From Candidatus Woesebacteria bacterium GW2011_GWB1_33_38 (GTDB lineage Bacteria > Patescibacteriota > Microgenomatia > UBA8517): a DNA stretch of 64,000 nt. The DNA lies in contig LBPF01000003.1 in assembly GCA_000990005.1 (NCBI GenBank), positions 71,479 to 135,478 on the forward strand. Direction: 5' to 3'. The translations under genes were made by a program, and so were the position numbers. Positions 3,559-32,872 of this stretch are shown here, one piece after another. Under the pieces are notes generated by a model. It searched no databases and had not been told where the DNA came from. It was given only the letters and a program-made list of their open reading frames with translations. Within the stretch, counting starts at the first letter, position 1. Each line of letters opens with the position of its first letter.

Positions 3559-3984
3559 ATGCCTACAGCAAACCAATTAGTAAAACACGGAAGGACTCCA
3601 AATAAAAAGAAAACCAAGACTACTTCTTTAAAAAAGTGGTTTAACTCTAAGGATAGACTTTTTGGTGAAACAGCATCCCCCTTTAAACGGGGTGTTGTTT
3701 TAACGGTTAGAACTCAAACACCCAGAAAACCTAACTCAGCACTTCGTAAAGTAGCTAGAGTTAGATTGTCAAATAAACAAGAAGTTACTGCATATATACC
3801 AGGTGAAGGTCACGAACTTGCAGAACATTCTGTTATATTAGTTAGGGGCGGTAAAGTTAAAGACCTTTCAGGTGTAAAATACACAATTGTTAGAGGAAAA
3901 CTTGATACAACTGGGGTTAGTGGAAGACAAACATCAAGAAGTAGATATGGAACAAAGAGAAACCAAGGAGGTAAAAAGCAATGA
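3559..3984 (+). CDS. rpsL: 30S ribosomal protein S12 (with ~17-aa N-proximal insertion)
   Basis: [40 protein letters not shown] matches the S12 consensus; it starts 4 nt after rpoC. Confidence 0.95.
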
Positions 3985-29881: not shown

Positions 29882-30415
29882 ATGAATATTTCTTGGACGA
29901 AAATAAAGGAAGAAAGATACAAAGCTAGAGCTGGTTATAGAAAATTAATTACTAAAACTTTCGATTATCCAAATGGACATAAAGCTGAATATGACATACT
30001 AGACGATAATGGTGCTGTCTGCGTTCTAGTTTTAACACCAAAAAGTGATGTGATCATGGTAAAAGTTTACCGTCCAGGACCCGAAAAAGTTTTAATGGAA
30101 ATGCCCGGAGGTTTTATTGATATACACGAAGATCCTCAAACAGCAGTAGAAAGGGAGTTGATTGAAGAAACCGGATATGAAGGGGAAATAGAGTTTGTGG
30201 GTAAAACTTATGATGACGCATATTCAAATATGGTTAGGTACTGTTATATTTCAAGAAATAGTAAAAAAATTAAAGAACCTAATTGGGATGATGACGAAGG
30301 TAGCATGGAAATTGTTAAAATTTCACTTTCTGAATTTAGAAAACATTTAAAGACAGGTGAAATGACAGATGTTGAAGTTGGCTATTTATGTTTAGATTAT
30401 CTAAATCTTCTTTGA
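29882..30415 (+). CDS. NUDIX hydrolase
   Basis: Nudix box GGFIDIHEDPQTAVERELIEETGY. Confidence 0.85.
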   Translation: MNISWTKIKEERYKARAGYRKLITKTFDYPNGHKAEYDILDDNGAVCVLVLTPKSDVIMVKVYRPGPEKVLMEMPGGFIDIHEDPQTAVERELIEETGYEGEIEFVGKTYDDAYSNMVRYCYISRNSKKIKEPNWDDDEGSMEIVKISLSEFRKHLKTGEMTDVEVGYLCLDYLNLL

Positions 30416-30430
30416 TAAAATATTGTAAAA

Positions 30431-30503
30431 CAGAGCGTGGCGCAGTTGGTAGCGCGCTGCTATGGGGTAGCAGAGGTCGCTGGTTCAAATCCAGTCGCTC
30501 TGA
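30431..30503 (+). tRNA. tRNA-Pro (anticodon GGG)
   Basis: Cloverleaf folded by hand: 7-bp acceptor CAGAGCG/CGCTCTG, D-stem GCGC, anticodon stem CTGCT/AGCAG with loop AUGGGGU, T-loop GCTGG TTCAAAT CCAGT; CCA not encoded. Confidence 0.85.
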
Positions 30504-30558
30504 CAAGTGTATGAATCAGTGTATTGACTTCGGTTAACTTTCGGTATTTAATTAAATT

Positions 30559-31404
30559 ATGATCCACACTGCCATATGCAATTTTTGTAAAAAGGATGTT
30601 CATAAAAGTGTTGGTAGACTCAATGAAGAAAAGAAACTTGGCTGGAAAAGTTATTGTTCAAGAGAATGTTTGGGAATGTCTCGAAGAAATAGAAAAGATC
30701 TTACGTGTTCAAGGGCTGGTTGTAAAAACAAATTTTTTCGTGTTTTTAATCAATATCGACGATTTAAAAATCACTACTGCTCTCATAGATGCTTAGCCAT
30801 TGTTGTTAATTCAAGAAGAATTTTAAAATCTAAGCAAAAATGTAAACTATGTAACAATTTTTTAAAATATGGAAAGACTTATTGTTCACCTAAGTGCAAA
30901 CAATTAGGAATGACACAGAGTGGGGAGTTTTTATTAAGTTGGATAAGACAGTTTTACAAAGATCATTCAAGAATTCCATTGAAACGTGAATGTATTCATT
31001 ATCATGCTGTCAGAATAAGATTTAAAGGTTGGAACAATGCAATACTTGTAGCTGGTTTTGATCCAAATCCTGTAATGTTTGCTAAGAAATATTTAGCTAA
31101 TGACGGTCATAAATGCGATTCTTTATCAGAACGAATAATTGACGATTGGTTGTCAAGAAGAAATATAAATCATCAAAGAAGTGTTCCTTATCCAAACAAT
31201 GAACAGTTCACTGCTGATTTTGTCGTAGATAAATATTGGATTGAATTTTTTGGCTTAAGCGGAGAACTAAAAAGATATGATTATTTAAAAAGAAAGAAAT
31301 TAAGACTTGCGAAAAAACTAGATTTAAACTTAATCAAGTTGTACCCAAAAGACCTTTTTCCAAAAGGTAACTTAAATAATGTTTTAAAAATATTGATAAG
31401 TTAA
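30559..31404 (+). CDS. Three FCS-type zinc fingers (..YCSxxC) + HEAR (homing-endonuclease-associated repeat)-like region + C-terminal putative PD-(D/E)xK-like nuclease domain
   Basis: SYCSRECL / HYCSHRCL / TYCSPKCK repeats; ..RFKGWNNAILVAGF..; C-terminal ..ADFVVDKYWIEFFG..; directly downstream of tRNA-Pro. Confidence 0.5.
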   Translation: MIHTAICNFCKKDVHKSVGRLNEEKKLGWKSYCSRECLGMSRRNRKDLTCSRAGCKNKFFRVFNQYRRFKNHYCSHRCLAIVVNSRRILKSKQKCKLCNNFLKYGKTYCSPKCKQLGMTQSGEFLLSWIRQFYKDHSRIPLKRECIHYHAVRIRFKGWNNAILVAGFDPNPVMFAKKYLANDGHKCDSLSERIIDDWLSRRNINHQRSVPYPNNEQFTADFVVDKYWIEFFGLSGELKRYDYLKRKKLRLAKKLDLNLIKLYPKDLFPKGNLNNVLKILIS

Positions 31405-31471
31405 AATATTTATCGTATTCCTCAACAAAAAAGACTCTTGAAGATTTTTTGCGTTGTGATATATATGTTAT

Positions 31472-31717
31472 ATGTCTAGTGAACACAATTTACATATTTC
31501 TAAGGAAGGCGTAAGGTTCGCCGTTACTTCTGGTGTTCTGATTGGAGCAGGTGTGTTTTTCCCTCCAGCTTTTGTTTTGGGAGTTGCAACTGGAGCTGTT
31601 GGATTTTTAAGAGAAAGAGGTAGGTTAAATGATATTAAAGTTAAAAATTTTATTTCTAAACTCCAAGATCCTGTTGAAGGACGCGAAGAACGAAAATTTC
31701 TAGGTTTGGAAGAGTAG
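31472..31717 (+). CDS. Hypothetical small membrane protein (81 aa)
   Basis: ORF with a glycine-rich TM segment. Confidence 0.35.
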   Translation: MSSEHNLHISKEGVRFAVTSGVLIGAGVFFPPAFVLGVATGAVGFLRERGRLNDIKVKNFISKLQDPVEGREERKFLGLEE

Positions 31718-31747
31718 GATTATTATTTAGTTTTCAATTTTTCCTTC

Positions 31748-31776
31748 TTGCATTTGGGGAAAGTTCGTATTAATCT
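31748..31776 (+). promoter_or_regulatory. Putative recA promoter TTGCAT-N17-TAATCT, 10 nt upstream of ATG
   Basis: Read directly. Confidence 0.5.
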
Positions 31777-31786
31777 GTAACAGCAA

Positions 31787-32872
31787 ATGGCAAAGAAAAA
31801 GTCAGAACCAATTGAGGCTCCAGTAAAACAAGAAGGAAATATAGCCAAACTTCAGGCAATTAAAATTGCTATGGAACAGATTGATAAAGCATATGGCAAA
31901 GGTTCCATTATGAGACTTGGGGAAAGTAGCAAAAATGTTGCCATGGATGTTATTCCAACAGGTTCCATTGCTCTTGATTTAGCTCTTGGTGTTGGTGGTT
32001 TACCAAAAGGCAGGATTGTAGAAATATATGGTCCAGAAGCATCAGGTAAAACTACCCTTGCCCTAGCAGTTGTAGCCGAAGCACAAAAATTGGGTGGACA
32101 GTGTGCTTTTGTTGATGCGGAGCATGCCTTAGATCCTCAGAGAGCTGAGATAATGGGAGTTAACCTTGATGATCTCTTGCTTTCTCAACCCGATACAGGT
32201 GAACAAGCTTTAGAAATTACAGAGACTCTTATTCGTTCTGGAGCAATTGATGTAATAGTTGTTGATTCAGTTGCCGCTCTTGTTCCACGAGCAGAACTTG
32301 AGGGTCAAATGGGAGACGCTGTAATGGGTCTTCAGGCCCGTTTAATGTCTCAAGCTTTGAGAAAATTAACTGGAGCAATTAGTAAATCTAAAACAATTTT
32401 AATATTTACAAACCAATTAAGACAAAAGATTGGAGTGATGTTTGGAAATCCTGAAACAACAACTGGAGGTTTGGCTTTAAAGTTTTACGCTTCAGTAAGG
32501 CTTGATATAAGACGTGTTGAGTCAATTAAAGATGGAGATAATGTGATAGGAACAAGATCTCGAGTACGAGTTGTTAAAAACAAAGTTGCACCTCCTTTAA
32601 AAGTTGCTGAGTTTGATATTATGAATGATGAAGGAATAAGTAAATCAGGCAATCTTTTAGATGTCGCGGTTGATTTGGGAATAATCACAAAGTCTGGGTC
32701 ATTTTTCAATTATGATGGTAAAGTTTTAGCTCAAGGGAGAGAAGGGGCAAAAGCACATATTAAAGAAAATGAAAAGTTTGCTCACGAAATAGAAAAAAAG
32801 ATTAGGGATTTGGCCACCTCAGGTAAAAAGCTTCCTAAAGAAATTGGCGAAGAAGAAAAAGACGAAGAGTAA
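31787..32872 (+). CDS. recA: Recombinase RecA
   Basis: GPEASGKTT Walker A, L1/L2 regions. Confidence 0.95.

Follow-up and report, generated by a model that had tools for sequence, protein, structure and literature searches.

The window analysed here, a 64-kb stretch of a Candidatus Woesebacteria contig, carries a single tRNA gene, tRNA-Pro(GGG), followed directly by an open reading frame (ORF) of 281 amino acids and, further downstream, by recA. ARAGORN and the ORF list agree on the tRNA and the ORF, as did a preliminary description made from the sequence, which saw in the ORF three zinc fingers, a homing-endonuclease-associated repeat (HEAR) and a nuclease-like C-terminal segment. The ORF and its family are named ZHN after these three parts (zinc fingers, HEAR, nuclease). 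The protein is basic (K+R 21%, D+E 8%) and has the same sequence as hypothetical protein UR39_C0003G0133 from Candidatus Woesebacteria GW2011_GWA1_33_30, which belongs to the Patescibacteria (candidate phyla radiation, CPR). By analogy with known systems, and with somewhat better than even confidence, ZHN is read here as a free-standing gene of the homing-endonuclease type, that is, a one-gene selfish insertion that targets the tRNA-Pro(GGG) gene and whose linked tRNA alleles would be immune. Related loci compared with the window are designated by L-numbers, and the window itself by W.

An alignment of 46 family members (mean column identity 45%) bears out the three zinc fingers of the preliminary description, which would be of the FCS/TRASH type. 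All three are Cys4 fingers of the form C-x2/4-C...YCS-x2-C, and each ends in YCSxxC. Ten of the 12 finger cysteines were described as invariant; taken finger by finger, C33 and C37 are invariant in the first, C50, C55, C74 and C78 in the second, and C95, C98 and C109 in the third, while C7, C10 and C113 are at least 90% conserved. Pfam returned no match to the zf-FCS, TRASH or MYM fingers in the window protein, though the C-x2-C...(F/Y)CS-x2-C signature occurs three times, and the ZHN profile matched finger structures in the PDB weakly, in its first finger (MYM-type 2das, E=0.14; L24e of the TRASH class, E of about 1). NCBIfam gave no match to the window protein.

A hidden Markov model (HMM) search placed the HEAR where it had been proposed, in the central segment: PF18780 (HEAR/HNH_repeat) matches the window protein above its gathering score (27 bits against 26; E=5.7e-6), over residues that include RFKGWNNAILVAGF. 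The same family reaches 45–50 bits in the shorter homologues, and precomputed matches to it are listed for nearly all ZHN homologues. In the AlphaFold2 (AF2) model the module consists of helices 122–136, 148–155 and 158–164, and its invariant residues are P140, K142, W158, N159 and G166. The short forms, present in Parcubacteria and Gottesmanbacteria, carry an HTH_23 helix-turn-helix in place of the three fingers; such a swap of N-terminal modules is typical of modular homing endonucleases and points to DNA as the substrate. Long HEAR arrays of 17–22 matched stretches were also seen in proteins P0121 (1313 aa), P0122 (1188 aa) and P0124 (964 aa), and arrays of this type dominate the 8483 weak matches of the ZHN family profile.

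The C-terminal domain of the AF2 model (predicted local distance difference test score 86.9) has an alpha-beta-beta-beta-alpha-beta core. Its best Foldseek match in the PDB is the catalytic domain of the homing endonuclease I-Bth0305I (3r3p_A; probability 1.00, target TM 0.66, root-mean-square deviation 3.7, 98 columns), with lower matches to TnsA, BglII and a DUF559-like protein. Both similarities on which the preliminary description had staked its reading, HEAR and a nuclease fold, were thus found. The D..(D/E)xK-like pattern that it proposed stood only in part. D220 on beta2 and E229 on beta3 are invariant, as are E191, H205, F221, G232, Y240 and K247, but the residues VDK are not conserved across the family; beta3 reads E-F-F and holds no lysine, and the conserved lysine is K247 on the next helix. 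ZHN has the core topology of the PD-(D/E)xK superfamily and lacks its canonical (D/E)-x-K on beta3. Alignment of the ZHN profile with the single sequences of Vsr and I-Bth0305I by hhalign was weak or spurious, so ZHN, I-Bth0305I (gp29 of phage 0305phi8-36) and Escherichia coli Vsr were aligned jointly with MAFFT. The helix Glu (E191), D220-F221 and an I-x-x-x-G on beta3 are common to all three; E229 corresponds to E206 of I-Bth0305I, and K247 to K223 of I-Bth0305I and R98 of Vsr. The composite EDxHD motif retains its first Glu and Asp (E191 and D220) in ZHN and loses its His and last Asp. Because the E/D frame is common and the His and last Asp are not conserved, ZHN is a Vsr-like nuclease near the EDxHD family and no strict member of it.

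Further matches to the C-terminal part came from PADLOC (PDC-S69, residues 174–266, E=1.7e-11) and PHROG (22655, residues 123–266, E=3.4e-7). A structure search of viral models found dozens of phage proteins with a zinc-finger array and a DUF559/Vsr-like endonuclease that align with ZHN over their whole length. Sequence and profile searches of the PDB with ZHN gave no nuclease match.

Across the ZHN loci collected (80 from species-representative genomes, plus others), a tRNA-Pro(GGG)-type gene lies no more than 700 nt upstream of ZHN in 78 of 81, from Microgenomates, WWE3 and Parcubacteria alike; it is on the same strand as ZHN in 59 and on the opposite strand in 19. The three loci without it are truncated copies. 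Every locus in which ARAGORN reported no tRNA holds a full-length tRNA-Pro(GGG)-like cloverleaf, rejected for its odd D- and T-loops. The genes recA-recX-rny occur within about 2.5 kb of ZHN in roughly half of the loci, either downstream and co-directional or upstream and divergent; in Parcubacteria recA is elsewhere and the link between ZHN and the tRNA persists. The constant partner of ZHN is tRNA-Pro(GGG), and the linkage to recA is a by-product. Far from being an incidental neighbour, the tRNA accompanies ZHN across the superphylum and is itself often altered. In other clades the ATG of ZHN follows the tRNA by 0–14 nt, so that the two genes are presumably co-transcribed.

A second sample, of 80 metagenome loci, was drawn with the window RecA (62–93% identity) to avoid ascertainment by ZHN. 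A tRNA-Pro(GGG) gene lies upstream of recA, in either orientation, in 49 of them; the gap between tRNA and recA is shorter than 300 nt in 30, contains ordinary genes or an ORF-free gap of about 550 nt in 15, and holds ZHN in 4. Four further loci carry ZHN with no tRNA on the contig, and in all ZHN is present in about 10% of the RecA-sampled relatives. As most of these sites are empty, Microgenomates ancestrally had the order tRNA-Pro(GGG)|recA-recX-rny, into which ZHN has been inserted sporadically. The genes that occupy the gap in place of ZHN encode Nudix, GNAT and four-helix proteins, none of them a nuclease.

At the insertion junction, the occupied locus L010 and the empty loci L117 and L091 have in common an upstream gene, a nearly identical tRNA and a promoter-like block consisting of TTGACT, a spacer of 16 or 17 nt and a -10 box. 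Homology stops just past the -10 box and restarts at the recA ATG, with about 1164 nt in L010 replacing 56 nt; the indel relative to L117 comprises this whole stretch and contains a single gene. The block, ATTGACTTCG...TTCGGTATTTAAT, is kept in W, L001, L004, L005, L006, L008, L010, L013, L061, L086, L094 and L097, and also in L165, L167, L169 and L170. The preliminary description regarded the corresponding TTGACT-N17-TTTAAT of the window as the gene's own promoter. The block is present 6 nt before the ATG, and a strict consensus promoter scan made no call on it; comparison through L010, however, shows it to be the homologue of the promoter-like block that immediately precedes recA where the site is empty, and it thus belongs to the recA upstream region rather than to ZHN. 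From these alignments, ZHN probably lies at the presumed transcription start of a captured promoter-like block, and its mRNA is probably leaderless.

At empty sites, about 31 loci have the tRNA gene beside recA in the opposite orientation and about 18 have it on the recA strand (L087–L163; for example L091, 5810–5881, +; L105, 5738–5811, -; L117, 1587–1658, +; L124, 3834–3905, -). Close relatives (RecA 77–83% identical) can have near-identical tRNAs in opposite orientations, so this 72-nt gene has been inverted in place repeatedly, and independently of ZHN. In L124 a second blastn match of 38 nt to the 5' part of the tRNA was seen at 3944–3980. A homologous Cys-rich protein of 177–187 aa is encoded just upstream of recA both in the ZHN-occupied L094 (5402–5965, +) and in the ZHN-free L102 (3510–4043, +).

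Intact copies of ZHN number 68, and decayed ones occur alongside them. L139 retains a relic of 62 aa beside recA, the copy in L133 has lost its catalytic core and carries a frameshift, that in L056 is split over three frames, and those in L044, L081 and L083 contain internal stops. Three traits of homing-type genes can thus be recognized: presence or absence at one homologous site, with clean empty sites in relatives; site-specific residence beside a highly conserved gene, namely tRNA-Pro(GGG), and in Microgenomates between this tRNA and recA; and decayed copies next to intact ones, as in a cycle of invasion, degeneration and loss. No partial duplications of the tRNA that might be footprints of repair were found with a tRNA profile. 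The preliminary description had proposed a selfish integrated element or a homing-endonuclease relic. Its selfish, homing-type core is retained here; there is no island using att sites, and the window copy, which keeps every family-invariant residue, is no relic.

The window tRNA folds as a canonical cloverleaf; it has G18G19, U33, G37 and the T-loop TTCAAAT, and its gene encodes no CCA. A non-canonical elbow, in which G18G19 and/or the TTCRA T-loop is missing, was found in about 38–40 of 77 distinct ZHN-adjacent tRNAs as against 2 of 41 at empty sites, both of which carry only U55C (Fisher p=1e-5 for loci with recA). The mean pairwise difference of the T-loop is 0.49–0.53 beside ZHN and 0.12–0.16 at empty sites (permutation p=0.0002), and the T-stems show no difference. 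Thus the T-loop, normally the most conserved part of a tRNA, is as variable as the stems in ZHN-adjacent tRNAs. Among these, A18 pairs with G55 in 22 of 24 cases, and 48 of 50 tRNAs with G18 have U55 or C55; in place of T54/A58, 6 carry A54/T58 and 13 carry G54/G58, and 72 of 77 retain C56. This covariation of tertiary pairs means that the sequence changes while the RNA structure is kept. Since the remodelled tRNAs fold as stable cloverleaves (-30 to -35 kcal/mol) and have an intact Pro(GGG) anticodon loop, their genes are not decaying. As far as literature searches show, compensated rewriting of the elbow beside a nuclease gene is undescribed.

Different tRNA backbones and different ZHN clades have arrived at the same elbow solutions. 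Clean co-segregation of a ZHN clade with an odd T-loop class was not seen; the odd classes are scattered over the tree, which points to repeated origins. The tRNAs of L010 (occupied) and L091 (empty) are near-identical, with differences that include U33C and U55C, while between the window and its closest genome, L005, the flanks are 85–88% identical and the tRNA between them cannot be aligned. The four closest relatives of the window protein (66–84% identity) all have remodelled elbows, three of them on the tRNA backbone type of the window. Of 28 other tRNAs encoded in these loci, 25 are canonical. Variation was noted in the anticodon stem as well: the tRNAs of W (30431–30504) and L004 (1600–1673) have 64 identical nucleotides and differ in all five anticodon-stem pairs (CTGCT/AGCAG against CCTTC/GGAGG), and anticodon-stem diversity among close relatives is far higher beside ZHN (0.60 against 0.24, p=0.004), an effect that is gone in a broader sample.

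Several observations concern annotation. ARAGORN missed 10 remodelled tRNA-Pro(GGG) genes, and Rfam cmscan, run at the gathering threshold with default filters, missed several such genes in CPR genomes, canonical ones included (L091, L117, L005, L010, L008, L032 and L050); tRNA counts for CPR genomes may be underestimates. Rfam scores of odd and canonical tRNAs were uninformative, as the fast filters lost canonical empty-site tRNAs too. Several representative metagenome-assembled genomes in GTDB that are titled 'uncultured Gammaproteobacteria', 'Pseudomonadales', 'archaeon' or 'Pacearchaeota' carry the Patescibacteria-specific ZHN (L008, L012, L020, L022, L023, L033, L036 and others); several of them (for example L008, L020, L022 and L036) also hold a CPR-type recA, and the record names look like placeholders or mislabels. 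Genes for RNase P RNA (bacterial class A) lie no more than 10 kb from ZHN in L032 (20187–20479, -) and L050 (9201–9543, -), probably as mere synteny.

The features of the window locus are collected in Table 1. Upstream of the tRNA and ZHN lie an ABC/MacB gene pair and a Nudix hydrolase gene, the latter between macB and the tRNA; downstream follow an ORF of 81 aa and then recA, recX and rny. The GC content of ZHN, overall and at third codon positions (GC3), equals that of its neighbours. A tblastn search of the first 83 related loci found no homologue of the 81-aa ORF, which contains a hydrophobic, Gly/Ala-rich segment and may either belong to the insertion or not be a gene. The spacer that holds it probably belongs to the inserted or variable segment. 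The Nudix gene is absent from the closest relatives L005 and L165, where macB is followed directly by the tRNA, so that a second indel exists at the same tRNA, and unrelated zinc-ribbon Nudix genes lie between tRNA and recA in L108, L112, L115 and L123.

Table 1. Features of the ZHN locus in the window
Feature	Position (nt)	Strand	Basis or remark
Nudix hydrolase gene	29882..30415	+	
tRNA-Pro(GGG)	30431..30504	+	ARAGORN; single tRNA in the 64-kb window
Promoter-like block TTGACT-N17-TTTAAT	30524..30552	+	Sequence; ends 6 nt before the ZHN ATG
ZHN ORF, ATG start, 281 aa	30559..31404	+	ORF list; 54 nt past the tRNA
Zinc finger 1, C7-x2-C10...C33-x3-C37, YCSREC	30577..30669	+	Cys conservation
Zinc finger 2, C50-x4-C55...C74-x3-C78, YCSHRC	30706..30792	+	Cys conservation
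Zinc finger 3, C95-x2-C98...C109-x3-C113, YCSPKC	30841..30897	+	Cys conservation
HEAR (PF18780), three-helix module, residues 123-168	30925..31062	+	Pfam, model
Vsr-like (PD-(D/E)xK superfamily) nuclease domain, residues 174-266	31078..31356	+	Foldseek, PADLOC, PHROG, alignment
Spacer ZHN-recA	31405..31786	+	L010 vs L117 comparison; holds the 81-aa ORF
81-aa ORF	31472..31717	+	
recA, then recX and rny	31787..32872 (recA)	+	Conserved right-hand flank in Microgenomates

The protein joins an array of DNA-binding modules, made up of three Cys4 fingers of treble-clef type and one HEAR module, to a Vsr-like, metal-dependent nuclease domain. This anatomy, together with residence at a fixed site, the occurrence of empty sites and the decay of some copies, suits a gene of the homing-endonuclease type, and a mechanism can be proposed on this basis. 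ZHN, presumably expressed from a leaderless mRNA that starts at the captured promoter, would act on a tRNA-Pro(GGG) gene free of the insertion, recognizing a long DNA site within or beside it that probably includes the sequence encoding the T-loop, and would cut there. RecA-dependent repair templated by the occupied allele would then copy ZHN along with the tRNA allele beside it. Selection would keep this linked tRNA allele from being cut, and escape would require changes at the most conserved positions of the tRNA, as these would be what the enzyme reads; their tertiary partners would then compensate. The tRNA data mean that the elbow-encoding DNA changes under selection with the RNA structure kept, for which a sequence-specific reader of that DNA is the simplest cause.

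Several points weigh against this reading. Cleavage, the target site and the homing event are extrapolated from I-Bth0305I and T4 SegB. In the joint alignment the column of the catalytic His of the EDxHD motif (H213 in I-Bth0305I, H69 in Vsr) is occupied by E, Q or K in ZHN, and that of the last Asp (D222/D97) is variable; the chemistry of ZHN may therefore differ, or the domain may bind without cutting. Sequence searches of GenBank phages and IMG/VR found no relative. About half of the ZHN-adjacent tRNAs, including that of the window, are canonical, so that a changed elbow is not needed for coexistence. The tRNAs of occupied and of empty sites were gathered in separate searches, and neither sample is phylogenetically independent. 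Odd T-loops also occur in three other tRNAs, none of them beside a nuclease-like gene, which indicates a low background of elbow variants in these CPR genomes (tRNA-Ile GAT in L059, 1632–1706, and L075, 7982–8054; tRNA-Ala GGC in L077, 3542–3615; T-loops TGCAAGT, TCCGATT and ATCGTAA). ZHN identity exceeds RecA identity in no pair, so no recent horizontal transfer is seen; ZHN divergence partly tracks that of RecA (Mantel r=0.36, p=0.0005); the nearest neighbour of ZHN is within the top 3 of RecA in 23 of 35 loci; and the GC and GC3 of the gene are native. ZHN evolves faster than RecA (closest pair 62% against 93% identity), and in some pairs RecA is 84–93% identical and ZHN only 37–62%. To judge from these sequence comparisons, ZHN seems to have been inherited for the most part vertically and lost often, and such a history accounts for the distribution about as well as homing does.

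A stronger version of the selfish reading, which is possible though decidedly more tentative, treats ZHN and its tRNA as a two-part cassette of drive and immunity, in which the nuclease attacks the canonical tRNA-Pro(GGG) gene or, less likely, its transcript, and the linked rewritten tRNA is the antidote. The antidote positions would be G18, U33, U54, U55 and A58, with compensated tertiary partners. If this were true, a selfish nuclease would be the selective force that makes functional tRNAs without the G18-psi55 and T54-A58 elbow, and such tRNAs would have arisen repeatedly, by several solutions (A18/G55; A54/T58; G54/G58), across a bacterial superphylum.

An alternative that appears unlikely, yet accounts for part of the data, is that ZHN descends from a homing endonuclease and has been domesticated, being kept by the host for repair or recombination with RecA or for an anti-phage task, with its place beside the tRNA as inherited synteny. 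Invariant residues of catalytic type at 45% mean identity, the number of intact copies, a divergence that partly follows RecA and the native composition would all suit such a gene, which is moreover co-directional with recA and probably co-transcribed with it from a shared promoter, and whose C-terminal domain matches the defence candidate PDC-S69. A beneficial function is harder to reconcile with a gene present in only about one-tenth of the RecA-sampled relatives, where clean empty sites are the rule, and with the existence of decayed copies. Moreover, it is the link to recA that is lost in Parcubacteria and the link to the tRNA that persists, and synteny alone leaves unexplained both the adjacency to the tRNA in two orientations and the specific remodelling of that tRNA. 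The mostly empty tRNA|recA sites and the Parcubacteria copies without recA weaken in the same way a recA-linked housekeeping or regulatory role.

Less probable still is a system acting on RNA, in which ZHN binds or cleaves tRNA-Pro(GGG) itself, either as a tRNase whose linked 'antidote' tRNA is resistant or as a partner protein that enables a tRNA with an aberrant elbow to work. The strict pairing with one tRNA species in either orientation would suit it, and so would the remodelling, which keeps the tertiary pairs of a region that many tRNA-binding factors read. Fingers of the FCS, TRASH and L24e types can bind RNA, though the matches of the ZHN profile to them are weak; Vsr-like folds are described as acting on RNA in FASTK/RAP proteins (PMC11879112); and weak fold matches of the ZHN model include Toxoplasma mitoribosomal proteins and a tRNA-splicing endonuclease. 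Against this, the nearest relative of solved structure is a DNA endonuclease, as is every named structural analogue, HEAR is a DNA-binding module of homing endonucleases, and the HTH_23 of the short forms is a DNA-binding fold. Half of the partner tRNAs, with that of the window among them, are fully canonical, and presence or absence combined with decay fits a selfish DNA element. That ZHN is cargo left over from an integrative island that used the tRNA as its att site is suggested by the classic position of ZHN directly 3' of a tRNA gene and is very improbable to the point of being effectively excluded, since no integrase is found among the window neighbours (as the preliminary description had noted) or in the related loci inspected, the duplicated tRNA end (attL/attR) that it recommended looking for is missing from the 64-kb window (no tRNA stretch of at least 11 nt is repeated there, in searches for repeats of 11–14 nt), the indel is a single gene between promoter and recA, in 19 loci the tRNA is oppositely oriented and has ZHN at its 5' side, and the composition is native. 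On the preferred reading, ZHN is neither a housekeeping gene nor part of an integrase island.

The homing-endonuclease-type reading has consequences beyond this locus. Most known free-standing homing endonucleases come from phages and organelles; the present family is bound to one tRNA gene throughout much of the Patescibacteria (Microgenomates, WWE3 and Parcubacteria) and is seated on the recA promoter. If ZHN reads the tRNA-Pro(GGG) gene, nature has carried out a repeated experiment in rewriting the 'invariant' elbow with its tertiary pairs kept, which would bear on tRNA structure and function, on recognition by RNase P, TruB and TrmA and on tRNA annotation. Bacteria with very small genomes would also offer a tangible example of a selfish element that shapes a core translation gene, and ZHN would be a compact modular nuclease (zinc fingers or helix-turn-helix, HEAR and a Vsr-like domain that lacks the usual catalytic His) whose target is long and predictable. 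For annotation, a 'hypothetical protein' beside tRNA-Pro in a CPR genome should be taken as a mobile nuclease and not as a core gene.

Among known systems, the nearest in structure is I-Bth0305I, which combines a modular N-terminus with a Vsr-like domain and belongs to a family that includes free-standing members (PMC3239194, also the source of the EDxHD motif). ZHN resembles it in joining N-terminal DNA-binding modules to a C-terminal Vsr-like nuclease, of which I-Bth0305I is the best structural match, and in the aligned helix Glu, Asp-Phe, I-E-x-x-G of beta3 and basic residue (K247/K223); both are located at recA, by coincidence or not. ZHN differs from it in lacking the conserved catalytic His (H213) and last Asp (D222), in having three Cys4 fingers and HEAR rather than NUMOD/HTH as its DNA-binding part, and in residing outside any intron or intein, in cellular Patescibacteria genomes rather than in a phage; HMM searches detect no sequence similarity between the two. 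The frame E...DF...I-x-x-x-G and the fold are common to ZHN and the Vsr/DUF559 proteins, and ADFVVDKYW of the window protein resembles PDFVVDEYR of Vsr. Unlike Vsr, ZHN has no Vsr zinc site, no counterparts of His64, His69 and Asp97 and no dcm partner, and carries an additional DNA-binding array; phage DUF559 proteins with zinc-finger arrays are its full-length structural analogues. PDC-S69, a phage-defence candidate of PADLOC, and PHROG 22655 match only part of ZHN, at its C-terminal end, and no defence-island context was seen at the ZHN locus.

For the T-loop changes beside ZHN, the best functional analogy is T4 SegB, a free-standing homing endonuclease encoded in a tRNA gene cluster, of whose 27-bp site the conserved 11 bp encode the T-psi-C stem-loop (PMC2330249). 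As in ZHN, a free-standing nuclease gene lies among tRNA genes; the core of its site is T-psi-C stem-loop DNA, and it drags neighbouring tRNA markers along (PMC2330249). SegB has the unrelated GIY-YIG fold, is a phage rather than a cellular gene and is not tied to one tRNA species, and compensated rewriting of the tRNA elbow is not reported for it. On the reading preferred here, ZHN is new in architecture and in its proposed target, and known in kind, as a Vsr-like free-standing homing endonuclease.

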